A stretch of 58,677 nt of DNA, the filler included, from Jimgerdemannia flammicorona (taxonomy: Eukaryota): the NCBI GenBank assembly GCA_003990765.1. It is 3 parts of 3 records of this genome, joined end to end, with 100 filler letters (N's around TTAATTAATTAA, not from the genome) between each part and the next. Parts side by side here need not be neighbours in the genome. Positions count along the whole stretch, not along the records: positions 1 to 19,498 come from RBNJ01001927.1; 2 more parts are not named here. One strand, 5' to 3'. The notes below the pieces were generated by a model. The model did no database searches and was not told where the DNA came from. It saw only the letters and a program-made list of their open reading frames with translations. The first letter of the stretch is position 1. Each line of letters begins with the position of its first letter. The position numbers and the translations under genes were made by a program. Below, one piece after another: positions 1-26,350 of the stretch.

Positions 1-501
1 TCGCAAGCTCAAGAACAACAATTACAGTATGTTAACCAACACCACCGAGAAGAAACCTTTGATATTGGAGAAAAGGTTCTACTGGATATCAGAGGATACT
101 GAGTTGACAACCTCAAGCATAGACCATCTACAAAGCTGAACAGCAAGTTCATTGGACTATTTGAAGTCATTGCACAAGTCTCTCCAACCTCCTACAAATT
201 GGTACTACTGGATACCATTAAGATTCACCCAGTCTTTAATGTTCAACATCTCAAGTGATACAATGAGAATAATGACAAGCTATTTCCAAACTGGACCACC
301 AAACCATCTGCACCTGTCATTATTAATGATCAAGAAGAGTATGAAGTTGAACAAATCCTTAACAAATGTAGCAACAAGAGCCACCCTGAGTATCTTGTCA
401 AATGGAAAGGTTATCTGATCCATGATACAATCTGGGAACCCAAGACCAATCTCCAGAATACTACTGACCTAGTTCAGGAATATGATTCCTTGAACAACTA
501 G
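1..501 (+). pseudogene. pol: Gypsy family A copy A1: integrase C-terminus and chromodomain (degenerate; element runs off the window start)
   Basis: Reads FIGLFEV..KIHPVFNVQHLK, then EEYEVEQILNK..EYLVKWKGY..HDTIWEP (chromodomain); closely matches ~32640-33140. Confidence 0.9.
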
Positions 502-699
502 AATCAAATACTCCACACCTATCTATACATACTATATATTATCCTCCCAAACATTATAATTATTGCAAACCAAACCAAGAACTCAGCAAAACCAGACAAG
601 AATACTAACTCTCTGGAAAAATGGCAAAACTGAAAGCAAGCCTATTCTCTCTGTACCACTGAACAAAATTAGAAGGCCCCGACAAGGACGTCAAAAGCT

Positions 700-712
700 A
701 AGAAGGGGAGAG
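700..712 (+). other. Polypurine tract of copy A1
   Basis: AAGAAGGGGAGAG one base before the LTR start TGTAAG; same arrangement before the LTRs at 33353 and 35884. Confidence 0.9.
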
Positions 713-713
713 T

Positions 714-2775
714 TGTAAGCACACAACCTCCAAGCCACCATAATTATACATCACCCTCTGAACAAGCCACTGAAATCACATGCGACATCTGAACAAATCT
801 GGAAATCACCTGCTTGATCACAAAGCTGAGTCAAACTGAAGTCACAGCACACAAAGCTGAGTCAATATGAAGTCACAGAATACAAGATTTATACAAATGG
901 AATCTTACCAATCAGGATCAAATGCATATATACCAAGCACTGAGATACATCAAATCAGAGAACCAAAACAAATAACAACTACAACTTCCAAACACACAAA
1001 CATGACCACTGAGATCTACACCCGTATCCACACTGACATTTGGAATACCATTGTCAACCAAGCCACACCCCCTCTGCCCCTCATGAATATCCATAGCCTA
1101 GCATCCCTCTACTTCATGAAAGCCCAATGGAATGCTCTGAACATGCTTAGCAAGGCCCACTGAATCAGACAAATCTCAAGCTACTACCAGATCGGCTACC
1201 TCCTGGAAGACATAATCGAACACCACTATGATACAGACATTACCCAGATGTCTCAACACCAGAAGCTCATTGCCCACAAACATCAAGAACTCTTCTATGA
1301 GTATAGCACCATTATTCCCCGCCTCTGAGTTACCACAGCCAAAATGGTTGCTACTCTGTCCTATGGTCAAATCAATGATATGATACAAGAACTCAACCAC
1401 AAGTACCTTGAGTATGTCAAAACCACAGACAGAACCTTCCACACCCCAATGACCATATCCTGCAAATGCCCCAAGTTGGATATGCCATGAAGGACATCTA
1501 TAATATAATCTACTTCGATGAAGATGAAGCAGAAGACAATGATCCCTCTGATGCCGACATGATCTCTAGCCAAGGATCTCTGCCAACCCTGATCATACCG
1601 CCAACCTTGCCGATGAACTTACAATAATTCATAACAGCATATGAGACTTATTGGGACAATGACCACTGGCACGAATACCAACCCACATTCACTCCCAATT
1701 ACTTCAACTACAATGAAGAGACCGGAGAACACAACCTGTACCTTCAGACAACCCTCGAGATTGAACCAACCACTCTACCACCCGAGTATGAGTGACATGA
1801 ACCACAGCCACTAGCTTACTACAACCCTGCAACTCATAGTGCTATAACCTATAGAAGGTATACAGATAGCGAATCTGATGAAAGTGAAGATGATGTACCC
1901 CTCCTTCACCCACTAACACCTTATCCAGTATATGAGACTGACGATACCATCTTGTGAGATAGAGACGAAGTTCCAATGTATTATTACCTCAGTGAATAAG
2001 GAGAAGTAATCCACGAATCACTCTTCCTAGATGACTACTTCATCAGAGATAATGCAATTGATGGTGATGTCATCGAGGACTACCCAGATAGTGCCTAAAC
2101 CTGTAAATAGCCTAAGCAGTCATAGTATAGTTAGATTAGCCTTGTATGATGTGACTGTGAACTGACTCAGCAGTCAGACGATCTCTTGACATGTCAGATC
2201 ACACTTGTACTACGTAACTGCATTCTGACTCAGCAAAGCACTTAGTGCTACATCCATATCTAGCATAGTCCAGATAGCCCCTCACTAGTATAAATACCCC
2301 CTCCCCTAGACCTCAGAATCTCAGACTCAAATACATAAGAACATTCCTGAACACTTTCCCACAATATCCCTCCACACAACTACTCCTAGTATAGTAATAT
2401 CATGAATAGCGAATAAACCTATTTAATAACCCACAAACCACTCTTAAGTAAATCTACTCTCTGTTAGATCTCACTCCTAACCCTATCACGAAATTTCCTA
2501 ATTGGGTATTGTCTGCAGCAATATGCCAATTCAACTAAGCTGGTCTTAGTTTCTTGAACTTCCTGAAATACAGAAAATCCTGAACATCCAGAACTAGTCC
2601 AAAAAAGAACTTTGGTTGAGACATCAACCCGATCTTGAAATCAATAAGCATAGAGAATATACTCCATATGAAATTGATCTTGACCATAAGAAAACAGTCT
2701 TCCAGAATATCCAGAACTTCTAGAAAACCCTTCTAGAACTACATAATGGCTACCCTAAAAAGTAACTCTCTTACA
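714..2775 (+). repeat. 3' LTR of copy A1 (~2.06 kb)
   Basis: TGTAAG...CTTACA inverted termini; three more copies at 24923, 33353, 35884; TATAAATA 2289-2296 and AATAAA 2412-2417. Confidence 0.93.
1002..2098 (+). pseudogene. LTR-embedded accessory ORF of family A (~365 aa), degenerate
   Basis: ATG ACC ACT GAG to CCA GAT AGT GCC TAA; same ORF in all four LTRs; 1098 nt in one frame in two copies, 1097 nt here. Confidence 0.8.
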
Positions 2776-3639
2776 TTCAGATAGCAGTTAAGAGTAAGAC
2801 TTATAACTATTGCTAAGAATCAAGAGTACAAAATTGTAGAAGCTCACAATATATAAGAAGATAATCAAGAAGACTTAGATAAAAAATCTGAAGACTAGCA
2901 TCAAACATCAGCCTATACTCTATGTTAGATTGAAGATTGTATCTTTGATACCATTATTGATACTGATACTGGAGGATGCCTCATGAGCAAGAAGGCAATT
3001 AACTGCCTAGGCTGAGATATTGAAGAGTCTATCAAGATAGTCTATATCACAGCAGATGATATATGAGCTACCCCTCTTGGCAAAATCTGAGAAGTTCCCA
3101 TCAAGATAGGAGGAGCTATCATCCTGGTAGATGTGATTATTACAAGTGCCACTAACTATGACATCCTCATTGATAACTAATAGCTTCACAAGGCTAAGGC
3201 CATCATTGATCTCAATGCCCAGAAGATACAGATCAACTATAGAGAAAGAAAGGTATGAGTCTCTATCAATGTCCACAAAGGAGTTCTACCAGATATGGAG
3301 AAAGGAGATAAAGAGGACACAGAAGTCTTTATACACTCAGTAAATAAGAACAAGAATAAGAACAAGAATAAGAACAAGACACCCAAGCTCACAGATGAGC
3401 AATGGTACAATAAGATCATTGATGGCTATACCCCTCAAGAAAGATGTCCTCATGGTACTAGGATGTACTGCTCTGAACACCTGAATGACTGCTGGTCCTG
3501 TATCAGTGAAGTCAGAAAAATCTATTAATAGAAGTATGAGCAAGAAGCTGCTGAAGCAAAAAAGAAAGCCAAAGAAGATAACCAGCCCCCAGAGCTACAA
3601 GCTGACAGTAATGATGAGGAGAAACAAGAACCAGACATC

Positions 3640-4055
3640 ACTCTCAAGTTTAAGAAGTTTTACTCCAAAGCTAAAATTCCAGAATATAAGACTAAAGGAG
3701 CCATAGAAATAGATCTTGCTAGCATCCAAGATACTACTCTTGAACCACAGACCATTACTCTACTTAGCACTGGAATTGGAGTCAAGTTGCCAGAGAACTA
3801 TACTGGAATTATCAAGACCAGGAGCAGTCTGGCCAAAAGTGAAATCTCAGTTGAGAGAGGAGTAATTGACCTTGATTACATTGGTGAGATCTTTCTCATA
3901 GTCAGGAATCACAACCCCACCACTCCATTTGAAGTCAAGAAGCATGACAGGATTGGCCAGATACTGATTCATGAAATCAAAAAGCCCAAGATTACTAAAG
4001 CCATTGAACTCATCAAGACTAAGAGAGGAGAATAAGACTTTGGATCTACTGAAAG
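3640..4055 (+). pseudogene. dut: dUTPase domain of family B (between protease and RT)
   Basis: GA.E.DLAS, STGIGVKLPENYTGIIKTRSSLA, GVIDLDYIGEI, DRIGQIL, RGE*DFGST = trimeric dUTPase motifs 1-5. Confidence 0.9.
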
Positions 4056-7000
4056 AGGAGCCTATGCTGCCACCAAGATTATTGAACTTGAGTACAAGAA
4101 TGACAAGGATCAGAATAAGTACACATATACCATTAGAGAAAACCTTCTACTGGAAGAATAACTTCTCAAGATCCTGCACTAGAATGAAGAAGTACTTACT
4201 ACAGACTTCAGAAATATCCACAATCAAAAACTCAAGTACTATTATAAAGTTGACACTGGTAATACCAAGCCTATCTATCAGAAAGTCAGACCTATACTAC
4301 CTGCCTACAGAGAATGGCTGTGAGCAGAACTCAAGGAAATAAAAGAAGCTGAAATTATCAAGTAAGCTATTAGTTCCTAGGCTTCACCTATTGTCCTTCT
4401 CCCAAAGAAAGAAAGCAAGCCTGGAGAGTTTGCTCCAAAACTCTGCATTAACTACAAGAAGCTCAATGTAATTACTAAGAAGGATAGGCAGCCCTTATCA
4501 AATATTCAAGAAATCCTTACCAATCTTAGAAGTGAAGCCAAATACTACACCACCTTGGATCTATTCTCAGACTTCTATCAGATTGGTCTCACTCAAGATA
4601 CCAGTGAGAAATCAGCCTTCATTATACCTGATGCCACCTATATCTACCTATAAATGTCATTTGAAATGTACAATGCACCAGCAAGTTTTCAGCAAATAAT
4701 GAATATAGTCTTCAGCAATGAGATCAGAAAATGGCTCTTTGTCTATATTGATAATGTAATCATCTTCAGCAATACTGTATGGGAACATATCAACCATATA
4801 CAGCTAGCTCTCAAGAAGCTCAAGGAGTATGGCCTCTACATCAAGCCCAAGAAGTATAAGTTTGCAGCTCAGAAAATCACCTACCTAGGACACCTTATCA
4901 ATCAGACTGGAATCCACACAGACTCTATGAAGATTGAGACTGTTGCAACCTACCCAAGACTCAGAACAACTACAGAAGTCCATGCTTTCCTTGGACTAGT
5001 CTCTTACTACAGAAGATTTATCAAAGGATACTCCAACATTGCAGCATCTATCTATGAGCTACTGAAGAAGGAGACCAAATTCAAATAGACTAAGGAATAC
5101 TAAGAAATCTTCAATGAACTCAAGATTAGGTTGACCCAAGCACCCATCCTCAGAAGACCAGATTGGAACCTAGAGTTCATCCTGCAGACAGATATAAGCA
5201 CTATAGAACTTAGAGCAATCCTAGCTTAGAAGAAAGATAGACATAAATATGTCATCTCCTATGCAAACTAAGGTACCTGCAGAGCAGAACAGAACTATAA
5301 GTCATATAAGCTCAAATACTTAGCAGTAGTTTGGGCAGTAGACAAGTTCCACTACTATCTAGCCAGAAAATACTTCACTATTCAAACAGACCATTTCACT
5401 TTTGCCTGGCTATTCCACACTCTGAACTCCAAAAGAATATATGTCAGATGGATCTACAGACTACAAGAGTATGACTGTACTATTAAGCATTACTCAGAAA
5501 GAACCAATACCAATGCTGATACACTCTCAAGGACACTCTGAAATATCTCTATCAAGACTATTCAATATGAATAAGGAGTTATACTATAGATTAATCAACT
5601 ATCTTGGGAAGTGGAAGATGCTCAACCACCTTGAACCCTGGACAATCACCATCATCAACCAGACTTGGAAACAGTTTGAACTAGACAACACTATACTCAG
5701 AAAAGGAAAAAAGCTTGTAATACTCAAACACAATGAAGGAAGTATATAAATAAGGATACTTAGGAGGAACCAACACATATGACAAAGTAAGAAAAACTAT
5801 GTGGTGGCCCAAGATAAAAGAAGACCTGTACCAATTTATCAAAGGGTGTGACAAGTGCCAAAAACAGAAACAAGATCAGCAAGACCAGGTACTGGGTTAT
5901 CAAGTATTGAGCCTATTACCTTCTGCTACATTACAATGGATATCATTGGGCCACTACCAGTAACACTATCAGGAAACTGCTACATTATAGTTATTATAGA
6001 CCTCTTTACCAAATGGATAGAAGCAGGAGCATTACAGGAAGCCAATGCCCTCTCTATAGCCAACTTCCTGTACTGAGAAATTATCTACTACTACAAGACA
6101 CCAAAGCAAATCACCACAGACCATGGTACAGAATTTATCAATGGATTCTATGAGATAATATATCAGAAATACAAGATTCAGCACATCAAGACCACTGCAT
6201 ATCACTCTCAAGGAAATAGACAGACAGAGAGAATTAACAAGACTCTCAAGAACATTGTGAAGATCTCAGATACATATGAAAATTGAGATAATTACCTCCC
6301 AACTGCTCTCTCTGTCTTATGAGATATACAGTCACAGAGTACACACTTTATCTCAAGAAAACTGCTCTTTAGAGAAGAAGATTCTAATGAAACCTCAGCT
6401 ACAAATCTAGATCTAACTTGGAGACAGGTTGACTCAGAAATCCAGAGACTATACCAAATCAAAAAGAAGGCTAAAAATTACATCATCAAGTTACAAGTAC
6501 TGATAAGAAAGAATGCAGAAAAGAATCACAAGACTCTAGAACCCATCCAAATCAGAGAAAAGATCCTACTGTATCAAAATATGATAGAAGCCTCATGGTT
6601 GTAAAAACTAGAGCCCAAATAGAAAGGATTCTTCTATGTGCAAGATATCAAGAGAACTACCTTCTGGCTTAGAAAACTTACAGGGACTATACTGCCTACC
6701 ACAGTATACAGGAATAGACTCAAGAAGTACCATGAACCTATACAAGAGAAGCAAAACATAATGACTACCTGTGAGGTTCTAGTCTACAAATCATAACAGC
6801 ATGTCCTGTGACCAGCAGGCAATCTGTCTGGACTATTCTCTAAGAGATATGGCACTAGCAACTACTCATTTGTAAGACCTTCAAAGCTAGAGGAGTTTGA
6901 ACTGTCAACTGATTAGTTAAGATCAGAATCCAGCCCTTGCTCTATATGAAGAGAGCAACTCTTCACTATCATACCAAAATACATAGAGAAGATGCCAGCC

Positions 7001-7366
7001 TATAAATACTACTTTTCAATCTCCTGTCAGAGGTTATGGGATCAGCAAATTTTTCAGAACTGGATCAATGAATAAGAATGTTTAAGAAGATCCTTATTCA
7101 GGAGAAAGATGTAATAGTGATCTCAGAATGATGACATCAGTATAGAAGACAGCCTTTCCTTACAAGCCACTAGACTAGAGCATAAAAAGATCATACAGCA
7201 TGACTCACCCAGGCTATAAGATGAGCAATAATGACCAACTATGAGTCATTAGGACTACAAGACAGACATCTTGAGAAATATAAAAGAAGGATCAAGGAAC
7301 TACAGTAGCAGCAACTCAACAAGACCCACTAATCCTGAAATAGCTCAAAGATCTATTATAAACAAA

Positions 7367-8173
7367 ATGTCTGCTACCTGCCAAACCTCAAGATCAAAGA
7401 ATCACCAAGACCTCTCAGTCTAGAAAAGGATATTCTAAGACATCCAAAGAGCTATAGAGATCTGTACCACAAGGACTCCTAGTGTCAACTTGGGTACTGG
7501 TGACTCTTATTATTATATTCTCTACTGCCACAAGATGGAAACAAGAATTACCATTGCTATCAAATACCTTCAGATATGGTAAGAATATAAAATAGGAAAC
7601 CTCTTCTACCAGGAATTCCCTCAAGCCAGTCGTCAAGAGCTACAAGATACTACTTCTATAGATATATGTGAAATAAGGATAGCTAAGAAGATTCATCAGA
7701 TCTTCAGGTATATACTATGGTTGATCTCCAACTTGGAGTATACCAGAGTCTCAGACTTCAGAGATCTGTTAGCCTACTATATTAACATACTAGAAGCCAT
7801 AGTAGCTACAGAAGTCTAGTCCACTATCACTCTTAATAGTGATGAGATAAAAGAGTTCTGGTATCCCATTCTCCAGGACAACCCAGATCAGTTCCTGCAA
7901 GGATTAATCTCAGTATTCCAAAGCCTCAGAATCCAGGTTAGACCTCCCTAAGACCCCACATTTGTTTCTTATTTTGTAGAAGAGAACCTCATAGATTGGA
8001 GAGCCCCTGATTTCCCTATCACCAAATATAATGATGTCATTGGCAATGATATCATCCTATATGATATATGTGAAATGTACAACCTACACAATGAGACTGA
8101 AACATTTGTAGATCTCATCTCCTTTAGTAATGATGAGGATGAAATCTCTATGGTCTTGAATATTTTACTCTAA
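7367..8173 (+). pseudogene. Family B accessory ORF downstream of integrase (268 codons)
   Basis: One frame from ATG TCT GCT ACC TGC to TAA 8171-8173 with scattered transition-type stops; aligns with the family C ORF at 13088-13915. Confidence 0.8.
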
Positions 8174-8639
8174 GTCCCTTAGTTATACTGAATTATGCCA
8201 GTATTCTTTTCCTATATAATAGCTATTCCTCTACTGATATTCTGACCTTATGTAACTCAGAATTATTTCAATATCCTGAACCTATGCAACCATCTATGCT
8301 GATACTGAAACTTGGCAGTTTTCTATATTCTAGCATTTTATTTGATTATTGGAATTTATATTTAGCTTTATATCTTAGCAACTATTGAATTATATATCTC
8401 TCTTATTTCTCTCAAAATAAAGTTAGTTCCAGTTCACTTATACTCAATTCCACATAAGTAATCTAAGAGATAACAAGACAGTTTAAAAATAAGAAGTTTG
8501 AGAACTATAAGATCTTGGGAAGATATTCCAATAAGAACTTGCTTATAACAAACTTAAGTTAGTCTAAGAGATATATTTTGAAGAGAATCTGATATATTTG
8601 AAGGACTCAGCAACTACTATAATAATATATATTGCATTT

Positions 8640-9860
8640 GTCAAAATTAATAACTTAACTATATATTGATTGATTTTATTAAGCTATTGAGATCTCATTT
8701 TAGTGAAAATCTTACTGATACCTTTGGGAGATGTATTTAAGATTTTGATATATAGATAATAATATATAAAGAGTAAGTGAGCCTTTTAAAAGAAGTTTTT
8801 AAAAAAATCAGATTTTTAAAAAAGATTAGGTTTTTGAAAAGATCAGATTTTCAAAAAAAGTTCAAAAGATCAGTTTTTTGAAAAAGATTGGGTTTTTGAA
8901 AAATAGTTATCTTACATTTTGAATTATTGATTTTTTACTTAACAACAATAATAATTGAAATAGAGTTCAATCATAGTCTCAACTATCAGTCAATACAACA
9001 TATATACTATATAGCTTATATTATCAATCTGGCCATTCAAGCCTTTTTAATCTGTCTGAAGGCTGATAATAATGAAAAAATAAATTTAAGTCTCTGAATA
9101 AGTATTATTAAGATTGGGTCATCATTATAGTATTTTGAGAGATTTACTATACAATATAAAGTCTATAGAATCAACAATCTAAAGAAACTTATTTTGGACA
9201 TTAAAACTTAGTGAAACTCAATATATTTGATAATTAAATAAGCTATTAAATTATTGAAGATAATTATATTTAATTATATTTAATTTATTAATTAAGTATA
9301 TAGATAATATAGGTCTATAATTATATCTAAATCTAATCTAATAAATTAATTTTTATTAATAGCTCTTAAATTCAATAGTTATAGCTAATAAAAATTTGTG
9401 ACAATATACTATTAGAGATTATACTTGATAGTTACTAAAAGATATCATTTTAGTATTAAAGAGTTTTTAATATATAATAGATCTTGCAACTTGGTAAAAA
9501 TATTCAACAATTTATTCTGCTATTCTAATTTATAACCTTTTACTAGATATATTAGAGAATAATGACAAAGTATTTCAAAATCATATAGCAGAACCAGAAG
9601 AAACTAGAGAGCTGAATACTCTCATTTAATAGATACTAATAGTAGCTATTGATAAGTTGAAGAAATACTATTCAATGACTGATTTATTATATTGGTACTG
9701 GTAAGTAAATATTTCAAAATTTATTTTATTTTTTAAATGAAAACCAGTTCTTAATTTCAGACTTAAACTATAATATTATTCAAACTATTGGAAAACTATT
9801 TAGATTGAAGTAGCTGAAACAACTATTTGTATAGTCTATAAGTAAATATAGATATATAAT
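8640..9860 (+). pseudogene. hAT transposase remnant, very AT-rich
   Basis: IAYIINLAIQAFL (CxxH region), LILDIKT**NSIYLII (LDVxTRWNST), SAILIYNLLLDILE, AIDKLKKYYS; parallels the transposase at 49.3-51.8 kb. Confidence 0.7.
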
Positions 9861-10758
9861 AAGATATAGAGTTAGATATAGATACTGAATTATTGACAAA
9901 ATGAATACAGAGCTCTATATTAGTATTCTTTATAAAGAATTATAAGAAACTATTGAATTTTATAATATATATAAAATATATATATATATTAGCAAAATAA
10001 TAACTCTAAGCATATATCTAAAATGGCAAAAAGTTAACTTAAAGATAATTAATTTCAACTACTGAATTGGCCAACACAATCATCTGATTATAACTCTATT
10101 GAATATTTTGAAGAATAAGCTGAATATTTATTAGAAAATACCCAAAAAAAAATTAAAGAGCTTTAAAAGAGAGTGAGAGAAGAATGAAATAAAATTTCAA
10201 AGGATATTTGTATTAAATTAATAAAAAGTACACCTAGGAGAGTTGTAGCTATATTTAAAGTAAAGAGTAATTATATAAAATATTAAATAATAAAATAAAT
10301 TAGCTAAATTAATAATAAGAGATAAAAATAGACCAATGATTAATTTGACTTTAAATAGTAATAACTATTATTACATAATAAGTACTGAGTTCTTCAAATA
10401 TATCAGATTCTCTTTAAGATATATCTCTTAGACTAACTATAAGTTTATTATAAGTAAGTTTTTATTGAAGTATCTTCCCAAGATCTTATAGTCCTCAAAC
10501 TTCTTATCTTTAAACTGTCTTGTTATCTCTTAGATTGCTTGTATAGAATTGAGTGTAAGTAAACTTAACTGACTTTATTTCAAAAGAAATAAGAGAGGTA
10601 TTTATATAAAATATAATTCAATAGTTACTAAGATATAAAGCTGAATATAAATTCCAATAACTAAATAAAATACTGAAATATAGAAAACTTCAGTTGTAAG
10701 TACAAATTCGAGTATCTGTATAAATAGTTGTATAAGTTCAAAATGCTAGTAGATTTCA

Positions 10759-12228
10759 TTTTTTTTTTTTTTTTTTTTTTTTTTTTCTTTTTTTTTTTTT
10801 TTCTATAGACTATTGCCTTATTTATTAACTATCTATAATATGTCACATATCCTCATACAATATCAGTAGCCCCATTCCACCCCAATCTCAACCCACCTTC
10901 ACTCTCACCCAGCCTTGTATTTTTAGGGTGTAAGTTGTGACCTCACTGCCCAAATAACTAGATCCTCCTACCTGGTCTGCCCCATCCAGTAGATATGGGT
11001 TGTGAGCCCCAACCACCTCAAGTACTTGGCATCTAGTGTACCTGACCTACCCCTATTAGTGCCTCCTGTCTTGCCCATCTAGCCCATCTTGTCCATCTTG
11101 CCCACTCATGTTGCCCATATTACCTGTGCTGCTATCTTGCCATCTTGCCCATCTTGCCCATCTTGCCCATCTTGCCCATCTTGCCTGTCTTGCCTGCCCA
11201 TATTGCCTATGTCCCATGTTGCCCATGTTGCCCATGTTGCCTGTATTGCCCATTTTGCCCATTTTGCCCATCTTGCCCATATCGCCTGTCTTGCCTGTCT
11301 TACCCACCTGTGTTGCTCGTATTGCCCATGTTGCCATCTTGCTGTCTTGCCCATCTTGCCCATCTTGCCCATCTTGCCTGTCTTGCCCACCCGTATTGCC
11401 CATGTTGCCCATATTGCCTATGTTGCCCATATTGCCCATATTGTCCGTATTACCTGTGTTGTCCATTTTGCCCGTTTTGCCCATCTTGCCTATGTCGCCT
11501 GTCTTGCCGTCTGCCCATCTTGCCCATATTGCCCATCTTACCCATCTTGCCCATCTTGTCCATCTTGCCCATCTTGCCCACCCATGTTACCCATATTGCC
11601 TGTGTTGCCCATATTGCCTATATTGCTCATGTTGCCTGTCCATATTGCCTGTATTGCCTGTGTTGCCTGCCCATGTTGCCTGTATTGCCTGTGTTGCCTG
11701 TTTTGTCTGTTTTGCCTATTTTGCCCATCTTGCCCATGTCGCCTATCTTGTCATCTGCCCATCTTACCCATGTCACCCATCTTGCCATCTTACCATCTTG
11801 CCATCTTACTGTCTTGCCCATCTTGCCTGTCTTGCCTGTCTTGCCCATCTTGCCCATCTTGCCCATCTTGCCCATCTTACCCATCTTACCCATCTTGCCC
11901 ATCTTGTCTATCTTGCTCATGTCACCTGTCTTGTTGTCTTGCCATCTTGCCCAACTTGCCTGTCTTGCCCATCTTGCCCATCTTACCCATCTTGCCCACC
12001 CGTGTTGCCCATGTTGCCCATATTGCCCATGTTGCCCACCTGTATTGCCCATGTTACCCATGTTGCCCACCCATATTGCCTGTGTTGCCCATGTTGCCCG
12101 TTTTGTCCATTTTGCCCATGTCACCTGTCTTGCCATCTGCCCATCTTGTCCATTTCACCCATCTTGCCATCTTGCCATCTTGCCCATCTTGCCTGCCTGT
12201 GTTGTCTGTGTTGCCTATGTTGCCCCTG
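10759..12228 (-). mobile_element. Non-LTR retroposed insertion: poly(A) tail, ~250 bp LINE-like 3' end and a minisatellite
   Basis: Poly-T 10759-10802; exact 14-bp duplication GCTAGTAGATTTCA at 10745-10758 and 12229-12242. Confidence 0.8.
11065..12228. repeat. Degenerate 9-bp minisatellite (TTGCCCATC/TTGCCCATG/TTGCCTGTC)n
   Basis: Directly visible tandem array of ~1.16 kb. Confidence 0.95.
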
Positions 12229-12305
12229 GCTAGTAGATTTCAGAAAAAGAATACTAATAGAATTTAGTTATACAGAAAAAGGATACCAGAAGATTTCAGT
12301 ATTAC

Positions 12306-13076
12306 TGTAATAACTCTCACTTTTACCCCTCTCTTATCCTTTGGATAATCAGGGAAGTGGACTATTACTTAGGGACTTAGTATACAATGTATACCAAGAA
12401 GCCTTCAGTTTGAGGAAGTACTTGCTTATAAGTAAGTGTAGCAGCAGTGCCTTCTGTTTCAAAGGTCTTTCTCTTATGCCCTATTTTGAGGGTCTTGTTC
12501 TTTGCTGTGCACAGACTGAATTCACCTTGGAATTCAGGTTTAATGGGTTTACTTAAGTCTTTGGGGATTTATATACCAGTCTCAGTTCTGGCAGAAGTTA
12601 GCTAGGCTTCTAGAGTTTAGTCAGAAATACTAGAGTTACTTAGATGTCATTACTAAGACTCAGGGGAATGTGTGTGTGCGAGGAGGGGACTTGATTCTTA
12701 TATTAAGGACTGAACTAAAACTACTTTATTTCAGATGGAAAACTAGAGGGTATTTATACAAGTTGGTCCATGATTTCTGACTAAGTATGAGTGACTAATT
12801 TGGTAACTATAATGAGGTTTATGATCATGACCTTTTGTCAGGTGGTTTTTGGTAAAAACAACTTTGTGATCAGGATCTCAATTACTAGACAATGATCAGT
12901 TGCTATGGCAACTGTTGCTGCAGCACCAATTGTTGGGGATAAGCTGGATATCATTTTTTATATCATTTTGCATTGTTCATAATTCATATGTTGTACTTTG
13001 CTTATATGGTGATGTTATTGCCACCAGGTCACGTGATCACTCATCTCGTCACATCTTATCTGTTTATTCTATTACA
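12306..13076 (-). repeat. 3' LTR of family C (771 bp)
   Basis: TGTAATA...TATTACA inverted termini; minus-strand PPT AAGAAGGGAAGGA at 13077-13089; minus-strand TATAAATA (~12755) and AATAAA (~12727); only one copy in the window. Confidence 0.8.
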
Positions 13077-13087
13077 TCCTTCCCTTC

Positions 13088-13915
13088 TTAGAAATCAACA
13101 TCCTCATTGATTCAGAAATTGAGAACCAGGAGAGAGAAAAATGGGGAATCCACCTCTGGGTTATTGCTATCTTCTTCAGTGATAGGGGGGATGGTTGCTG
13201 ATGGCTCACTATCCAGGGTAGAGAAGTCAATGAGGTCTGCAAATGGTTCTTATATGGGGGTGGGTACTGGTGTAGGGGTTCTCCATCTGATGTGGTTGGG
13301 GCCATCCAGGTAGGGTTCTTGGTCCTTATGCTGGGGGATATCTATTCAGATGGGCAGTCCTTTAAAGAGATCAGAGAGGCCTTGGAGCCATTGGTCTGAG
13401 TTGTCATTTAGGAGGGGGCTCCAGTGAGGCTCGATGTCAGTAGACTTGAGGGCAATCCAGGAATTGGCTTCTTGGGCAACCTTGATTTCTAGAGCATCAA
13501 CCTTAGGGAAAGAGAGATTCTGAAAATCCTTCAGTTGTATATAGTTGAGATTGAGGATTGCAAAGGAGACATGGCATATGATTTGATAAACTTTCTTAGC
13601 AAGTTTCTGCTCATGTCTATCCAAGTGGGTCCAGTCAGAGACTTAGTCAGTAGGGAGGCCATTTTTATGTTGGAGGAGCTGGTGGCCAATTTCATATTCA
13701 TGTCAGATCTCTAGGTGGCTGGTGGTAAGGTAGGTCCTTTCAATGAGTTCATAGCAGTCAAGGACATACTGTCCTAGGTCTGGGCTGGAGAGGTTAAGGG
13801 CCTCTGAGCAGTGGTTTCTTCCTTAGATAGTGACCTGGATGTGTCCAAAGAGGTGGTCAACTTGGCTTGGGAGGGGCTGGCTACAGCAGACAGATTGGCG
13901 GCAGGTAGCAGGCAT
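13088..13915 (-). pseudogene. Family C accessory ORF between pol and PPT (275 codons)
   Basis: One frame from MPATCRQ to a TAA overlapping the PPT; includes ORF-track 13346..13624; TATAAATA ~65 bp upstream. Confidence 0.8.
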
Positions 13916-14582
13916 TCCTGGTTTGTCTTTTCTTTATAGAGAGAGGGGGATAAGAGTTGCAGGGTATTCTTGCCTTGGATATTTATACTTATTCACCTAT
14001 CTCGTGTGATCTTCCTTTGGATACACTTTCTGGTAAAATGTATGACCTGTTGCTATAAGTGGAACATGTGCTAGTTATATGGGAAAATCCTGATTTCAAA
14101 GATATCATCACTTGTAGTTATGGTTACACAAGGTTAGCAGGTCTTGGTCCTCTTTTTTTTTATCTGGTTGGCACATTTGCGAGGACTGGCCATCCTTGTC
14201 TAGGGCAAGGGCTCCCATTGTCATGACTGGGGGTTTGAACCTCTCGGAAATAGACTTTCTTATAATCTGAGGCAATTCCTAGTAACAATATCTGTCATAT
14301 GGATGGACTTAGACTGGTTTTGACATTGTTGGCTTTCCTAAGTTCCACATGAAGCATCTGTCATCATCCAGTAGAGATGACACAGATGACATGAAATGGA
14401 GTTATTCAAATGTGTTTTGCTATACTATGCTAGATGGTTCTTTTACTCGAGTATCTTCTGGTTGGCTATTCATAGTGTTCCTTTTTCTTGCCACAATGTT
14501 TGGTATTATATGTTTGAGATAAGATATATAGTATCCTTCTTCTCACTGTATGCTCCAATATTTAGAGCTGTAGTTCCTTCCT

Positions 14583-17500
14583 TTAGTAGGGAGTGAGTAT
14601 TTCTACATAGTTCTGGAGGGCTTCACATGTATTCTTCAGAGCTTCTTCTTTTTCCCAGATGGTGTCATGGGTGGGGTAACCCTTCCACTTGATCAGAAAA
14701 AACTGCTTGACTGTTTTGGGGTATTTGCAGACCTTGTGGTCCAGTACTTCCTCAATTTCGAATTTCTCATGATCATTGATCCAAATTGGGGATGGTGGTG
14801 GAACTGTACACTCGGAGAATAGATTCTCATGGTAGTCCACTAATTGGCTGATATGGAATACTGGGTGTACTCAGATATTGTTGGGGAGTTGCAACTTATA
14901 GTTGACTTTGCATGATCTTGTATGGTCCAATTCTTCTAGCATGGAGTTTCTTGGCTGATTGTTATACTAGAGTGTCTGGGTGGAGGTGGTCTGTTCTAAG
15001 CATAACCATGTCACCAATATTGTAGGAGGCTTCTCTTCACTTCAAGTTTGCATACTTGGTCTGATAGTCTTGTACTTCTATGAGAGCATCTCTTGTCATT
15101 CACATAAGATCAGAAATGGTCTCCATCAGATCTTAGGCTGCTGGAACTACTGATTTCACAGTAGTACTTGGGGTCCTTGGGTGTTGACCATGGTTCAGAA
15201 AGAATGGAGTCTTCTTTGTAGAGGTTTGCTAACTGTTGTTATAGGCAAACTTGGTATAGGCTAGGTACTTGTCTCAATCATTTTGCTTGTAACAGTAAAA
15301 GATGCTAAGCATCTGTTTAAGAGTTCTGTTAGTTTACTTGGTTTGGCCATCAGTCTGAGGGTGGTAGGCAGTAGAGAACTTCAGCTTGGAGAGAAAAATG
15401 CCTTCCAGAAGTTGCTTGTGAACTTGGCATCTCAGTCAGATACAATAGAACTAGGTATACCATATAGCCTAAATACTTGATTGAGGAAAATCTCAGCAAT
15501 CTCTGGTGCTGTAGCAGTGATCTTGGTTGGTGCAAAATAGGCTTACTTACTTAGGCAGTCCATGAATACCACAATGGCATTCCATCCTACCTTGGTTTTG
15601 GGGAGTTGGACAATGAAGTCCATTGCAATCTAATCCCAGTTATGGCTCAGGATAGGTAAGAGTTGCAGGAGTCCTGCTGGTAGCTTGTTACCACTTTTAA
15701 ATCTTTAGCACATCTTGCATGAGACCACAAAGTCTTTGATGTCCTTGGTCATCTTTGGCCAGTAAAACTCTCTTGAGAGGAGGTTGTAGGTCTTTTCGAA
15801 ACCAAAATGTCCTGCCACAGGAGTGTCATGGAGTTCCTGCATGATCTTGAGTCACAGAGTATCATTGTTGAATACAACTACTCTATTATGGTCTCTGTAG
15901 ATAAGTCCATTATGGTAAGTGAATCTCTTGACCATTTGCCTCATGGGTTCTAGGACCTCAGCTTCTGGGTCTTGGCAGAATTGAAGGAATTTTGCCAGGG
16001 GGCTATCTTGCTGGTAGTCATCCTTGATCATTTGGGTAAGATCTCCAATTATCTTGATCATGAAGATAAGTTCATCTTCCATATACCTGGAGAAACCATC
16101 AGCCACATGGTTGGTTTTGCCTGGGATATACTTGATTTCCATATCGAAGTTAGCAATGATTTCCATCCAGCAGACTTGTCTGTGGGTCAGCATAGACTGT
16201 GTGTAAATATACCGTAGTACATGGTGATCAGTATAGGCCACAAATGGCTGTCCTAGGAGAAAATGGTGCCATTCCTGAAGTGAAGTAACAATGGCCAGGA
16301 GTTCTTTCTCATGGGTAGTGTACTGGGTCTCAGCTGGCTTGAGCTTCTGGGAAAAGTAGGCTACTGAGCAGTCTTCTTGGCTGAGTACTGCTCTAATAGC
16401 AATGTCAGAGGCATCTGTGGTCAGGGTGAATGGTCTGGTAGAGTCAGGTGCAATTAGCACTGGAGCCTCAGTAAGGAGTCTCTTGAGATGGTCTATAGCC
16501 AGAGTGCATTCAGGGGTCTATTCAGTTTTGATGTTCACTCCTTTGCAGGCCAGGCTGGTCAGTGGGGCTGCAATAGCAGAGTATCCTTGAATAAACCTTC
16601 AGTAATACCTGGCAATACCCAGAAAGTACTGGAGTAGCTTGAGGGTTGTGGGGATAGAGATATCCTTAAGAGCTGATATCTTTCAGAGGTCTACATTGAT
16701 ACCTTCAGCAGAGATGATGTGTCCTAGATATTCAATCTGGTCCTGATAGAACTTGCACTTGCTCATCTTGGTATAGAGCTGGTGTTCTTACAGAAGGGTC
16801 AGTACCTGTCTGAGGTGGGTGTAGTGTAGCTCCACTGTCTCACTGTAGATTAGTATATCATCAATATATATAAGAACACAGATGTTGAGGAGTGGTCCAA
16901 AGATGTCATTCATCAGATACTGGAATGTTGCTGGTGTATTAGTCAATTCAAAAGACATGACTCAGAACTGATAGTATCTAAACTATGTTCAGAAAGCTGT
17001 CTTCTCAATGTCCTTTTCATCAATGAGAATCTAGTGATAGCTATTTCACAAGTCTAGTAGGGAAAAGGTCTTGGCCTTGAAGATTTGGTATAGCAACTTG
17101 TCAATTCTAGGTAAGGCATACTGGTTCTTGATGGTGATCTTGTTGAGGGCCCTGTATTTAATACATATTTGCAGAGAGCCATTCTTCTTCTTGACAAATA
17201 GAATAGGGGCTCCAAATGGAGAGCAGCTGAGTTCAATGTATTCTTGGGCCAGTAGTTTGGTCAACTCATCCTTGAGGGTCTTGAGTTCAGGTTAGGCCAG
17301 TTGGTAGATACTTTTGTATGTGGGTTCAGATCCTGGAATAAGATCAATTCCATGTTGGATTTGGTACTTGGGTGGGAGTCCTTGGGGGTCTTGGAATACA
17401 TCTTGGAATTCTTTGAACAGTTCTTGAGCTTCTGTTGGGATTGGGCTACTTGTAGCTTCAGTGACTTCTTGTACTATATAGATGAAATAGGTGTTTCCCT

Positions 17501-18000
17501 TTTTTCAAAAGAGTCTCTTCATTTGAATGGTAGAGATGATTTTGATTTCTTGATGGTTGGTATCTTCCTGGGGTGTCAGGGTGATCTTTCTGCCTTCATG
17601 GGTCAGATTAACCTCATTGGTTCTCTAGTTGATGTCTGGGTTATGCTGGGTCAACTAGGTTTTTTCTAAGATAATGTCTTATCCTGGGAGGTCTATAATG
17701 CTGAAGTCCAACTTCTCTTGATATTTGCCAATCTTGAGCAGGAGATCCTCACAGATCTTGGTCAATGGTGTAGTTTTTCCATCACCAAAGATAACACTTC
17801 TTTTCTCAGTGGCTGGTCTGCTTCGGGCTCCAATTCTCTTAGTGGTCTTTATGCTGATATAGTTTCCAGTAGCACTGCTATCAAGCAAGATATTGACATT
17901 CTGTCTGTGGACTTGGCCTGTGAACTTGATGCAACTGTCCTCCTTCTTGATGGTGTTGAGCTCTTCATCTTCATTGTTATTGTCCCAATTGCTGTCAGTC
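14583..18000 (-). pseudogene. pol: Family C pol (PR-RT-RNaseH-IN-chromodomain)
   Basis: ORF-track fragments 17679..17888, 17046..17264, 15852..16460, 14583..14840 carry the canonical motifs. Confidence 0.92.
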
Positions 18001-18259
18001 TCCTCTAAGTCAGTTTCTCCCCATCCTTCATAAGGAGAGTTGTCTTGTTTGGGTTCTTCAGTCTATTGAGCTTGGCATTTCTTGGATTGAATTTTGAAAA
18101 CTTTGGAGAGGCATATATAGCATTCACCAACATGTTCCATGCAGTATATTCGAATAGAATGAGGGCATCATCTATATGGTGCATAACCATCTGCAATTCT
18201 CTTATACCAGTTTTCATCATCTTCCTTCATAGTAGTGACCTTTTGACTGGGAGATTTGT

Positions 18260-18680
18260 TGGTTGATCCAAACTCTTTCTTGCCATAGTCTGTCTGGAAG
18301 AGTTCAGAGACTTCTTCAATGGTGAGATCTTGATGGATTTCTTCAATGATTGCTTGGACAATTCTTTGGCCTATTTTGACTTCAAATGATGTGTCTCCAA
18401 AATTTTGCAGGATAATATGGATTTCGCCAGTAAATTCTTGATCAACTACTCCTCCTTTTAGCCCAATATTGAACTCTTTGACTAGGCTGCTTTGCTCAGC
18501 AAGGTGGATGTATATACCTTTGGGAGCTTGCATTGCAATCTCTGTTCACACTGTAGTATTGGTACTTGGTGGAATTGTGAGGTCTTGGCTGCTGTAGAGG
18601 TCATATCCAGCATTGGTTGGGTGGGCCTTAGTGGGGATGGTAGCCTTGTACCATATCTTCTGTACTTTGATGACATTCTT
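18260..18680 (-). pseudogene. dut: dUTPase domain of family C (between gag knuckle and protease)
   Basis: NAGYDLYS, QSSLV, GGVVDQEFTGEI, GQRIVQAI, YGKKEFGST. Confidence 0.9.
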
Positions 18681-19350
18681 GGGGTTCTTTTTTCCTGGAC
18701 CTTCTCCAATAACCGTAATGTTCTGATTACTAGGTTCACCTGCTCTGTTCTTCTTCTCAGGGCATCTGAATGAGATGTATCCTGCCTTTTTGCAGATGAA
18801 GCACAATCCTTTTTCATGGAGCTGCTTCTTTTCATCCTCAGTGGGAGGTCTGGGTCCTCTGGGGTTTCGCTGGTTCCTTTGATCATTCCTTTGATTATAT
18901 CTTTGGTCATTCCTTTGATCATATCTTTTGGTAGGATTCTTCCTATCTTAGTTATCCTTCTTGTATTCTTTATTTTGTAGGGCTTATGCAGCAAGGATTT
19001 TACAGGCTCTTCTTTGTACTTGAGCAAAACACCATGAGTAGTGGGGGCATCCTTGGGGAAGATCTTATTCCTTGATCTTCTGGGTGAGCCAGTCTGGTAG
19101 GGCTGCAAACAGATAGTTGGCTCTGGTACCATTGATGGCCAAGTTGTTCTCCTGGTATATAAGTCCAACAGTTTTGAGGTAAGCATCCATTCTGGTGGCA
19201 AAGGTCTCTAGATCCTCTTCACCATTCTTGTGGAACTTCATCTGGGAGAGCTTGTTCCAAGTTTCTTATATATAGGCTGTATTTTGGAATTTAGTCAGTA
19301 GCAAGGCCTTGAGTCCTGGGCCTGCTTTATAGTCATCCCAATCTGATCTA

Positions 19351-19498
19351 TTTTTTTTTTTTTTTTTATAGTCACTTGGACTCCGCCTTTATTACCAGTC
19401 TATGAATAAATATATATCATTCCAACCCACTATCCAATCCCCACTGGGGGGCCCCTCCCTACTTTCTCACGAATGAAAATCACCCTTTCTCCAACTAC
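19351..19498 (-). mobile_element. LINE 3' end with poly(A), interrupting family C gag
   Basis: Poly-T 19351-19367 then ATAGTCACTTGG; minus-strand AATAAA just upstream of the tail; same terminus at 26351-26395. Confidence 0.7.
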
Positions 19499-19598
19499 NN
19501 NNNNNNNNNNNNNNNNNNNNNNNNNNNNNNNNNNNNNNNNNNTTAATTAATTAANNNNNNNNNNNNNNNNNNNNNNNNNNNNNNNNNNNNNNNNNNNN
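19499..19598. other. Scaffold gap with artificial TTAATTAATTAA spacer
   Basis: N44-TTAATTAATTAA-N44; identical structure at 39091-39190. Confidence 0.97.
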
Positions 19599-19980: not shown

Positions 19981-21114
19981 TCTGTATCAGTACCTCAAGT
20001 AGTACCAGTAATACCACTACCAGCAGTCCAACTGCCTCCAGTAAACAATATGGCAAACCAACAGATTCTAGACCTCATAGCCCAGGTAGCCATAATGGCA
20101 GCAACCATTACTGTCTTAGCTGAACAGACCTGACCTACCAAAAATCTGAGCCTACCTACCTTCAATAGTACTGCACAAGAAGTCCAAAGCTTCATTAGTG
20201 TAGTTGACACCAACTTCGAAGCCAATCAATAGACTAATGAGCAAGTTGCTGACCACATTCTGACAAACAATCAAGACCACACTCTGGAACAACTCTTTGC
20301 TACCACTACAGCCTATGTCTACTGAGTTGTTACATTCTTCTGAGGACCTGCCGAAGAATGGTGGTGAACCTTTCCTGAAAAACCCCTTATATGGGATACC
20401 TGACCTACAGTAGTTGCTCAGAATGCAGCAAACAATGCCCCAGAATATGGAGCCCATCCTGCAGCCCCTGGACTCAAACAACTCATAATTGCCCAATACC
20501 ACAGTGAAACCATGATTGCTGAATCCCGAGTAAAACTCTGCAACCTCAAATTCGATATATATAGCAAAGAAGAATTTGAAACCTTCTATACAAAACTCGA
20601 GTCACTCCTGAACACTGTTGGCCTAGGATACATTGCCAATGATGAAGCATGAAATGATACAAGAGCAGATCACTTATTCGATGCCCTGCCCAAATGGCTT
20701 ACTAGAAAAATCTGAGAACAAGGCCGCCCAGTTGGTTGTGACTACCAACAATGGTGCCTGGCAAGAATCAAGACTATGGTCAAGCGAATCCTAACAGCTG
20801 GACCAATTCTGCCTCGAAGACAATGCAACAACAAGGAAAAGACTTGGACCAAGAAAGAAGAACCCAAGTATGAAGCATCCTGAGTTCCCTTTACATCCAC
20901 CTCTTGAATACCTAGAAATCATGAACCCACCCAGCCAAGTACCTTTAAGAAACTTACTGAAGGCAAAAGGAATGAACTTTGAAGAAGTGGAGCATGCTTC
21001 TATTGCCGAAAGACAGGACACATGGCCAGTGCCTGCCCTAACCAAAAACCCTGAACAGCAACAAGAGCAACTGTTACCACTCTGCACCACCTCAACAACC
21101 TGACCACCAGAATA

Positions 21115-21525
21115 CTAGACTTTGTGAAGTTAAGACAAACTGCTAAGGCCCCAATCAAAGAAAGCCCAAAAGCAGCTGGATATGATCTGTATGCAGCCGA
21201 AGAAGCTACAGTCTCCAACTGAGAAGTCAAACAAGTCTATATAGGAATCAGCATCCAGATCCCTGAAGGACATGTTGAAAGAATATGCTGTTGCAGCAGC
21301 CTAATATTGAAAGGACTGTCAGTAGAAGGAGGAGTTATCGATGAAGATTATACAGGTGAAATTATTGTCCTCATCCGAAACCATAGTTGGACACTCTTCA
21401 AGATCCCTATTGAGTTCTGCATTACCCAGATCCTATTTGAAAAAATCAAGTCAACCCTGACAATCAAGGAAGTCCCTGAACTACTGCCTACCATCTGAGG
21501 ATCCAAAGGATTTGGCTCATCAAAC
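21115..21525 (+). pseudogene. dut: dUTPase domain of copy A2
   Basis: AAGYDLYAAE, GGVIDEDYTGEI, ITQIL, *GSKGFGSS; directly after the gag CCHC knuckle. Confidence 0.9.
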
Positions 21526-21739
21526 AAGGCCCCAACTCAACCTACCATGAGCAAAGAAGAACAATTCTACAAAAAGATCGAAGATAGATATGTACCAAGT
21601 GGCTGATGCCCCCATGGCATTGGAATATACTCTTCCCGAATGATTGATGATTGCTTCTCTTGTATCAATGAACTGGCTCAAAGAAGAACCAATAGAAGGA
21701 AAGCTCCTACAACTAAAATCACCACCATTGGATCAGACA

Positions 21740-24700: not shown

Positions 24701-24922
24701 CAGTTACAGTATGTTAACCAATACTGCTGAGAAGAAATCTTTGATATTGGGGAAAAAGTTCTACTAGACATCAGAGGATACCGAGTTGACAACCTCAAGC
24801 ACAGACCATCTATAAAACTGAACAGTAAGTTTATTGGACCATTTGAAGTTATTGCATAAGTCTCTCTAACCTCCTACAAATTGGTACTACCAGATACCAT
24901 TAAGATTCACCTAGTCTTTAAT
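21740..24922 (+). pseudogene. pol: pol of copy A2 (PR-RT-RNaseH-IN)
   Basis: [59 protein letters not shown]. Confidence 0.95.
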
Positions 24923-25210
24923 TGTAAGTGCACAACCTCTAAGCCACCGAAATTACATGTCACCCTCTGAACAAGCCACTGAAATCTCACATGACCTCTG
25001 AACAAATCCGGAAATCACCTGCTTGATCATGAAGCTGAGTCAAACCGAAGTCACAGCGCACAAAGCTGAGTCAATACGAAGTCACAGAACACAAGATTTA
25101 CACAAACAGAATCTTACCAATCAGGACCAAATGCATATATACTGAACACTGAGACATGTTGAATCAGAGAACCAAAACAAATAATAACCACAACTTTCAA
25201 ACACACAAAC

Positions 25211-26308
25211 ATGACCACTGAGATCTACAACTGTATCCATGCTGACATTTGGAATATCATTGTCAACCGAGCCACACCCCCTCTGCCCCTCATGAATATC
25301 TATAGCCTGACACCCCTCTACTTCATGGAAGCCCGATGGAATGCTCTGAACATGCTTAGCGAGGCCCACCGAATCAGACAAATCTCAAGCTACTACCAGA
25401 TCGGCCACCTCCTGGAAGACATGGTCGAACACCACCACGATACAGACATTACCCAGATGTCTCAACACTAGAAGCTCATTGCCTGCAAACATTGAGAACT
25501 CTTCTATGAGTATAGTACCATTATTCCCTACCTCTGAGTTACTACCAGCAAAATGGTTGCTACCCTGTCCTATGGCCAAATCGATGGCATGATACAAGAA
25601 CTCAACCAGAAGTACCTCGAGTACATCAAAACCACAGACAGAACCTTTCCATACCCCAATGATCATATCCTGCAAATGCCCCAAGTTGGATATGCCATGA
25701 AGGACATCTACAATATAATCCACTTCGATAAAGATAAAGCAGAAGACAATGATCTCTCTGACGCCGACATGATCTCTAGCCAAGGATCTCTGCCAACCCT
25801 GATCACTCTACCAACCTTACCAATGAACTTACAACAGTTCATAACTGTATATGAGACTTATTGGGACAATGACCACTGGCATGAATACCAACCCGCATTC
25901 ACCCCTGATTACTTCAACTACAATGAAGAGACTGGAGAATACAACCTATACCTCCAGACAACCCTTGAGATCGAACCAACTACTCCACCACCTGAGTATG
26001 AGCGACATGAACTACAGCCACCAGCTTACTACAACCCTGCAACTTATAGTGCTGTAATCTATAGAAGGTACATAGACAGTGAATCCAATGAAAGTGAAGA
26101 CAATACACCCATCCTTCGTCTACTGACACCTTATTCAGCCTATGAGATAGACAATGCTATCCTGTAGGATGGAGACAAAGTCCCAATGTATTACTACCTC
26201 AGTGAATAAGGAGAAGTAATCCATAAACCACTCTTCCTAGATAACTACTTTATCAGAGATGATGTCATCGATGGTGATATCATCAAGGACTACCCAGATA
26301 GCATCTAA
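25211..26308 (+). pseudogene. LTR-embedded accessory ORF (best-preserved copy, 365 codons plus stop)
   Basis: ORF-track 25211..25471 and 25553..26167 share a frame; 1098 nt ATG to TAA with a few transition-type stops. Confidence 0.85.
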
Positions 26309-26347
26309 ACCCATAAATAGCCTAGCAGTCATAGTATAGTTAGATTA

Positions 26348-26350
<3 letters not shown>

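Follow-up and report, generated by a model that had tools for sequence, protein, structure and literature searches.

A putative accessory gene 3' of pol in dUTPase-bearing Ty3/Gypsy elements of Jimgerdemannia flammicorona

Do the Ty3/Gypsy retrotransposons of Jimgerdemannia flammicorona carry a gene of their own beyond gag and pol and, if so, what might it do for them? Such genes make simple retrotransposons virus-like and self-regulating, and few of them are known besides env. The stretch of DNA analyzed here, referred to as the window (GCA_003990765.1; 58,677 nucleotides (nt), filler included), is repeat-rich eukaryotic DNA joined from 3 parts of 3 records, positions 1-19,498 being RBNJ01001927.1. 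The joins at 19499-19598 and 39091-39190 each consist of two 44-N runs around a 12-nt linker, and the sequences flanking them are not necessarily neighbours in the genome. The window contains three Ty3/Gypsy families, here designated A, B and C, whose elements are dUTPase-bearing and of the chromovirus type. An original prediction, made from the sequence of the window, proposed that all three share one unrecognized accessory protein family.

Here we describe this family and its relatives in metagenome collections. Extra open reading frames (ORFs) in long terminal repeat (LTR) retrotransposons are of a kind already known, while the accessory family itself is unnamed. The best overall explanation, to which we assign a probability of roughly 0.55, is a selected accessory gene that would be expressed from its own promoter and whose product would regulate the element in trans. 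Its function, if found, would show how such elements control their expression or escape silencing by the host.

Accessory coding regions in elements B and C

The accessory ORF of element B (7367-8173, plus strand; B-like subfamily) ends in ...VLNILL before its stop codon, and that of element C (13088-13915, minus strand; C-like subfamily) has its true stop at 13088-13090, adjoining the polypurine tract (PPT). Where ORFs of ~270 codons had been predicted there are indeed coding regions 3' of pol, but the frames are not open, with 5 internal stops in B and 6 in C; the shared motifs listed in that prediction are all present in the translations of both. A third, truncated copy of the B-like type, comprising the N-terminal 121 codons (57996-58358, plus strand), lies in AT-rich decayed DNA with no pol detected upstream and is 45% identical to the B ORF over 118 amino acids (aa). 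In all three families pol and the accessory ORF share one strand, and comparison of the 3' regions of A, B and C at the nucleotide level revealed no similarity.

At the protein level, the lengthwise alignment of B and C that had been proposed is borne out: BLASTP aligns them without gaps over 212 codons, with 70/212 identities (33%), 108/212 positives and a pairwise E of 2e-34. Over the 636 nt aligned without gaps, codon positions 1, 2 and 3 are 43, 60 and 33% identical, respectively, and amino-acid identity is 33% in the proposed frame vs 16-25% in the other five frames; the codon-position pattern and the frame-specific identity both indicate protein-coding sequence. Counting the terminal stop, stop density is 2.2% in the B ORF vs 2.4% in its pol, and 2.5% in the C ORF vs 1.9% in its pol. 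Since the ORFs match pol in this respect, they were probably open when the elements inserted and decayed later with the rest. The copies in the window are dead relics of the gene, and intact copies exist elsewhere.

These intact copies were found by scoring a profile of the three window copies against 1,835,955,588 representative proteins (cut-off E <= 0.001). Five representatives match, at E between 9e-94 and 8e-11; none contains a stop, and they measure 138-342 aa, come from metagenome collections and are at most named 'hypothetical protein'. One of them is divergent, and the others sort into a B-like and a C-like group. A word-based protein search with the C ORF accepted 0 of 255 candidates at E <= 0.01, and a related-locus pattern search matched 1 of 338 among metagenome contigs and 0 of 80 among viral contigs. 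The single match, contig L001 (1535 nt), has an intact 291-codon ORF about 56% identical to the C ORF, and the in-frame stops 5' of its ATG indicate that the gene is a separate cistron rather than an extension of pol.

Comparison of L001 with C over 269 codons gives pN 0.26, pS 0.63 and a nonsynonymous-to-synonymous ratio (dN/dS) of 0.24. The original prediction had named a ratio near 1 as one of the outcomes that would speak against it, and the ratio from this one pair is well below that. Because part of the divergence is neutral decay of C, the true constraint is stronger than 0.24 shows. Contigs from a soil-metagenome DNA run (X1; share 0.08) were also placed on the C 3' region (695 pieces, at least 80% likeness), and at two of C's six internal stops a sense codon is present in 12/12 and 3/3 of the covering contigs.

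It could be objected that both window copies are full of stops and that the frame after next in C has 6 of them, as few as the proposed frame, so that the ORFs might reflect chance similarity or a conserved non-coding 3' region. This objection is contradicted by the codon periodicity, by the dN/dS of 0.24 and by the stop-free relatives of up to 342 aa with 40-64% identity, which leave it hardly any probability at all. We are confident, from the combined sequence evidence, that the accessory gene 3' of pol is very probably real and selectively maintained. The family is common to at least two architecturally different dUTPase-bearing Gypsy lineages and, given its rarity in public data, has probably been missed by annotation.

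The architectural difference concerns element B. Pfam models RVT_1, RT_RNaseH, Integrase_H2C2 and rve match in A, B and C, in the Gypsy domain order. Element C (12306-19498, minus strand) reads gag, dUTPase, protease (PR), reverse transcriptase (RT), RNase H, integrase (IN) and chromodomain, followed by a spacer of ~620 nt, the ORF, the PPT and the LTR; its 5' end is lost at the N gap 19499-19598, and an ESM Atlas search with its open RNase H/integrase stretch returned generic Gypsy clusters of mixed taxa. Family A has the order gag, dUTPase, PR, RT, RNase H, IN and chromodomain. Element B (2789-8276, plus strand) is heavily decayed and reads PR, dUTPase, RT, RNase H and IN, then the ORF, with the dUTPase after a protease-like DTG motif that, like the PR assignment, was recognized by eye only. 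The order of protease, Cys/His-rich segment and dUTPase in B (2900-4100) is thereby inverted relative to A (28900-30100) and C (17400-18700). The Pfam Chromo model matches C (E 1.5e-8) and A (E 4.8e-9), and in B no chromodomain was found at E <= 0.01, nor any gag or definable LTR, PPT, primer-binding site (PBS) or target-site duplication. The host elements had been predicted to differ in domain order and chromodomain content; B, heavily decayed as it is, appears to differ in both, whereas A and C are alike in both.

Two positions of the gene and its probable relative in family A

In the C lineage, the ORF lies outside the LTR. Its stop codon overlaps the PPT (AAGAAGGGAAGGA; 13077-13089, minus strand), which is conserved in L001, and the junction of stop, PPT and TGTAAT is common to C and L001. 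The 771-nt 3' LTR (12306-13076, minus strand; TGTAATA...TATTACA, with TATAAATA at 12751-12758) has a 7-bp terminal inverted repeat, in which TGTAATA directly follows the PPT and TATTACA stands at 12306. X1 contigs that match up to 12306 continue into a PBS of the tRNA-iMet type, as expected of 5' LTR copies, and contig depth is 360-1180 over 12280-12927 vs 20-210 over the ORF. From the PPT, the terminal repeat, the PBS junction and the depth, the LTR of C extends from 13076 to 12306, with the ORF as the final internal feature ahead of the PPT. A 14/15-identical 15-mer containing the complement of the PBS core had suggested that the LTRs of B and C start at the TG of the ATG; this reading was rejected, because the 15-mer is not kept in L001 and because the C LTR, judged by the PPT, the TGTAAT start, the 7-bp repeat and the PBS junction, begins only beyond the ORF.

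The spacer between pol and the ORF of C includes a segment, 14143-14385, with an X1 depth of 340-550 vs about 80-115 in neighbouring bins, a 40-nt piece of which is also kept in L001. This segment may be a conserved non-coding part of the element or a separately repeated piece.

The probably related gene of family A is an ORF of ~365 codons (MTTEIY...DYPDSI) within the LTR itself, and four copies of it are present in the window, all on the plus strand. Two are in the 5' LTR (25211-26308) and the 3' LTR (33641-34737, with one frameshift near 33840) of a nested A element; the third (1002-2098, with a frameshift after ...TDRTF) is in an LTR at 714-2775, and the fourth (36161-37258) is in the 3' LTR of the A element that the nested one interrupts. 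In each of the four 2.1-kb LTRs the ORF is separated from the LTR start by ~290 nt and from the TATAAATA of that LTR, downstream, by ~190 nt, which places it in U3. The limits of the A LTR are fixed by the LTR pair, PPT, PBS and 5-bp TTAAT target-site duplication of the nested element. The 5' LTR (24923-27044, plus strand; TGTAAG...CTTACA) is followed by ACT and TGGTAGCAG, a PBS of the iMet type, and the 3' LTR (33353-35414, plus strand; TATAAATA at 34927), 90.5% identical to it, is preceded by the PPT AAGAAGGGGAGAG. TTAAT stands at 24918-24922 on the left and at 35415-35419 on the right, and the interrupted A pol reads across both copies. The complete element (24923-35414) is inserted in the integrase-coding end of another A element (19988-24922 and 35420-37935); the region 19988-37935 is a nested insertion, not a simple tandem array.

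The A ORF has intact relatives in two metagenome proteins that match its two halves: P0008 measures 247 aa, has no stops and is 64% identical, and P0009, with 128 aa and 79% identity, starts at the same MTTEIY methionine. The A LTR ORF, too, is a real gene. That the gene is found on either side of the PPT, before it in the C lineage and within the LTR in A, is the most unusual feature of these elements and would be a natural example of an LTR boundary shift.

The original prediction also included a weaker match of the A ORF to B and C. With a 3-sequence profile this match is not significant (hmmsearch independent E-values (i-E) 2.5-4.9; hhalign E 0.25), and with a 10-sequence profile it becomes suggestive without being conclusive: hhalign gives E 0.002 and 7e-4 (P about 1e-3) over 124-125 collinear columns that start near both N-termini. 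None of 154 column shuffles, a lenient control in that shuffling destroys local composition, reached the real score of 31.6 (mean 14.7, standard deviation 2.5, maximum 22.8), and the reversed alignment scored 11.2. A scan of the window in all six frames hit B, C, the third copy and otherwise only three of the four A LTR copies (i-E 0.004, 0.014 and 0.1). Identity between A and B/C is about 20% (18-23% in alignment A7), and MAFFT lines up a similar C-terminal hydrophobic-acidic motif in both. On balance these comparisons favour, with some reserve, the A gene as a probable remote homologue of the B/C family.

Whether the gene descended with pol or moved between lineages can be considered by comparing identities. 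Between B and C the ORF is 35% identical, RT 41%, dUTPase 44% and RNase H 28%; RT identity is 48% for C and A, 41% for B and C, and 34% for B and A. Among these three elements the closest pair is A and C by pol, and B and C by the ORF. Exchange of the 3' module through recombination between Gypsy lineages, as opposed to descent along with pol, would account for a pattern in which A and C are closest by RT and by dUTPase-PR order but B and C have clearly similar ORFs (35%), with that of A barely recognizable (18-23%). We think such exchange rather unlikely. The B-C identity of the ORF is within the range of the pol domains (28-44%), as common descent predicts, and common descent therefore suffices. 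In A, where the gene has entered the LTR and gained ~100 codons, faster change would explain the incongruence equally well; the comparison involves three elements only, one of them badly decayed, and the metagenome ORFs come without linked pol sequences.

The protein, its candidate promoter and its possible role

The description of the family as unrecognized has held. For the accessory protein no family was found in Pfam (E <= 1, 4 intact members and the A ORF) or in NCBIfam, and no match among PDB sequences (E <= 1), which also means that a described ORF3 or env family, for which a check had been proposed, was not among the matches in these three collections. The ESM Atlas, searched with P0003, gave a best score of 0.88 to an unnamed cluster and no lead. 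All 8 intact relatives have hydrophilic N-termini and a maximum Kyte-Doolittle 19-residue mean of at most 1.05, and no env family of Pfam matched. Lacking a membrane segment or hydrophobic N-terminus, the protein is not env, just as the absence of an evident signal peptide or transmembrane segment had led the original prediction to conclude.

The accessory protein is predicted to be soluble and made apart from Gag-Pol. Its N-terminal part of ~190 residues has an isoelectric point (pI) of 5.6-6.4, with helices predicted over roughly residues 20-190. The tails are strongly acidic (pI about 4.05, net charge -15 to -36) and contain 18-34% bulky hydrophobic residues, with repeated motifs of the DLIxF type (DLISFS, DLIDFS, DLINFS, DLITFS and DLIIFE) and a conserved C-terminal VLNF(L).

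Upstream of the gene, a TATAWA box is found 72-88 nt from the ATG in B, C, L001 and 4/4 A copies. The candidate internal promoter of the B ORF is TATAAAAG (7279-7286, plus strand), 88 nt upstream of the start, and that of the C ORF is TATAAATA (13980-13987, minus strand), 72 nt upstream; L001 has TATAAAAG at -80 from its ATG, and the A ORF has TATATA (33566-33571, plus strand) 75 nt upstream, at the same distance in 4/4 A copies. In mononucleotide shuffles, TATAWA falls in a window of 70-95 nt in 2.4-5.2% of trials per lineage. In addition, an exact GCTGAGTCAA repeat occurs twice in each A LTR, 146 and 177 nt upstream of the ORF start with a spacing of 31 nt (33464-33504, 825-865, 25034-25074 and 35984-36024), and the window holds 9 matches to GCTGAGTCAA vs 0.15 expected. 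TGAGTCA is a site of the AP-1/Gcn4 type, and the GCTGAGTCAA repeats of the A LTR may therefore be upstream activating sequences. We rate the chances that the accessory gene has its own promoter as even.

Under the explanation that we prefer, a TATA promoter of its own, 72-88 nt before the ATG, would drive the gene, and the subgenomic mRNA would end at the poly(A) site of the LTR, which in family A would put the whole unit inside one LTR. The product would serve the element in trans, as a regulator or adaptor. It might be a factor of the acidic-activator type that raises transcription of the element encoding it, much as Tas, with its internal promoter, does in foamy viruses, and we offer this activator function tentatively, as something less than an even bet. 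Bolder still, and improbable as it stands, is the idea that these elements are 'complex' in the sense of complex retroviruses, with a self-promoted gene that activates or de-represses them in trans and with, in A, a plus-strand priming site shifted past the gene so that a promoter-ORF-poly(A) unit would lie inside the LTR. If true, every LTR of family A, even a solo one, would provide the regulator gene by itself, and a genome full of dead copies could supply its product to the few live ones.

Other roles can be imagined for the same protein. CpG observed/expected is 0.2 over the whole window and decay is almost all transitions, rare before T, a pattern that fits heavy cytosine methylation of the host's repeats; between the two LTRs of the nested A element, 193/197 differences are transitions. 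An element in DNA that looks so heavily methylated would benefit from an antagonist of host silencing or defence, whether a VANC-like anti-silencing protein or an antagonist of RNA interference or chromatin repression, and the fast divergence of the family (33% identity between B and C, about 20% to A) would fit an arms race. Yet Pfam and NCBIfam show no known silencing-suppressor motif or domain, the alignment has no GW/WG repeats, and dN/dS of 0.24 reflects overall purifying rather than diversifying selection, so that we hold this role to be unlikely. A structural or targeting cofactor in assembly, nuclear entry or integration, whose helical domain would bind Gag or integrase and whose DLIxF motifs would bind a host factor, has about the same low standing with us. 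The repeated acidic-hydrophobic motifs and the C-terminal VLNF(L) resemble linear docking motifs such as the clathrin-box, SUMO-interaction and LC3-interaction motifs; acidic-hydrophobic motifs are equally typical of activation domains, however, and Gag and integrase in the window are too decayed to use. Finally, LTR retrotransposons do pick up host sequences, and a family with no recognizable viral or transposon domain might stem from a fragment of a host gene that was captured and serves no purpose for the element. Against so passive an origin, which we consider very improbable, purifying selection has conserved the gene across two or more diverged lineages of elements, L001 keeps the same stop-PPT-LTR junction, and the matches among 1.84 billion representatives are 5 small metagenome proteins, with no larger cellular family.

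Several observations weigh against the preferred explanation, a self-promoted gene with a trans-acting regulatory product, and have to be set beside it. The intact relatives all come from short metagenome contigs, perhaps of one or a few related organisms, and the dN/dS estimate is that of a single pair whose synonymous sites are near saturation. For A vs B/C the hhalign probability is only 14-26%. No limits could be set for the LTR of B, which leaves the ORF of this element without a defined place with respect to the PPT. The 70-95 nt window for the TATA box was chosen after the data had been seen, C and L001 are kin by descent, and the promoter and subgenomic mRNA are inferred from sequence only; a search of sequencing runs for the stretch gave a single DNA run, X1, and no RNA run. 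Searches of Pfam, NCBIfam and PDB for known domains detected no DNA-binding or other domain in the protein, AlphaFold models from 10- and 14-row alignments (mean pLDDT 43 and 45) are too poor for fold comparison, and what speaks for an activator is solely the composition of the acidic, hydrophobic tail.

Related systems and neighbouring sequences

The accessory genes tas and bet of foamy viruses are located at the 3' end, have an internal promoter and reach into a long U3, and Tas is an acidic transcriptional activator. The genes read here resemble tas in being 3' accessory genes whose product has an acidic tail, and perhaps in an internal promoter, for which the TATA-like box is the candidate, and differ from it in that Pfam reveals no sequence similarity and that no DNA-binding region is recognized in the protein. 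In mouse mammary tumour virus (MMTV), sag lies in U3 and encodes a type II membrane glycoprotein. Family A shares this layout, with a dUTPase in the polyprotein and a whole ORF in the U3 of a long LTR, unlike the C lineage, where the ORF ends at the PPT, outside the LTR; and in contrast to Sag, the accessory protein has no membrane segment and no Pfam match. The LTR-embedded layout is otherwise known from MMTV and foamy viruses, and here it would belong to a selected, non-env gene with a likely promoter in elements of the chromovirus type. In a passage of PMC2774666, betaretroviruses are noted to have both a single additional gene and a dUTPase resembling the one found in fungal chromoviruses.

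Among retrotransposons, a close description is that of fungal chromodomain Gypsy elements (PMC2864245; Novikova et al. 2010). In the text of that paper as covered here, the position of the dUTPase varies between families and the legend of Figure 3 lists an 'add. ORF' of unknown function, so that these elements share with the present ones a dUTPase of variable position, in line with the inverted order in B, and an additional ORF, and share a chromodomain with A and C. The text covered gives no sequence, family or position for the 'add. ORF', which by description might be the same ORF as ours. Our literature searches found no description of the accessory family; the supplementary tables of PMC2864245, outside that coverage, might list it. 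As far as the consulted part of PMC5408684 (Rodriguez, Kenefick and Arkhipova 2017) goes, the LTR elements of bdelloid rotifers have varied ORF3s common to different types of retroelement; these elements are dUTPase-bearing as well, and the recurrence of a third ORF type in unrelated lineages parallels the modular sharing proposed by the original prediction. The rotifer ORF3s recorded there are env-like, GDSL esterases or DEDDy exonucleases, whereas the accessory protein has no Pfam or NCBIfam family. Plant Retand elements, according to the sections of PMC11963269 seen, have TRP28 ORFs between pol and the 3' LTR and thus share with the present elements a conserved, possibly regulatory extra ORF in that part of a Gypsy element; TRP28 is antisense and belongs to non-chromovirus elements, in contrast to the sense ORF of the dUTPase/chromodomain elements described here.

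The remaining features of the window concern the surroundings of these elements. Element B is cut at 8277, ~100 nt after the stop of its ORF, by an inserted AT-rich element (8277-10740; 23% GC) with terminal inverted repeats of ~400 nt and 81% identity, which hides the B 3' end. A PBS-like TGG downstream of the B ORF was rejected as a candidate, since it is inside this inserted element. Between the converging 3' ends of B and C is a 1.1-kb satellite (11069-12193) of about 127 copies of the 9-nt unit TCTTGCCCA, which is open in several frames and therefore produces long spurious ORFs.

The A LTRs with ends at 2775 and about 37935 each lead into a degraded PBS-like sequence (2776-2800 and 37936-37965) and then into unrelated internal sequence, namely the protease region of B in the first case and, in the second, a piece of an integrase C-terminus at 38238-38531. 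The arrangement points to elements that are chimeric or have internal deletions and employ LTRs of the A type. Farther downstream, a Pfam scan of ORFs of at least 110 aa at 39-54 kb identified no family, and a stretch at 49.8-51.7 kb that had looked hAT-like by eye was rejected, as Pfam gives no family for it. A tandem-repeat array occupies 51883-52555, with 50% GC, units of ~85-116 nt and several open frames.

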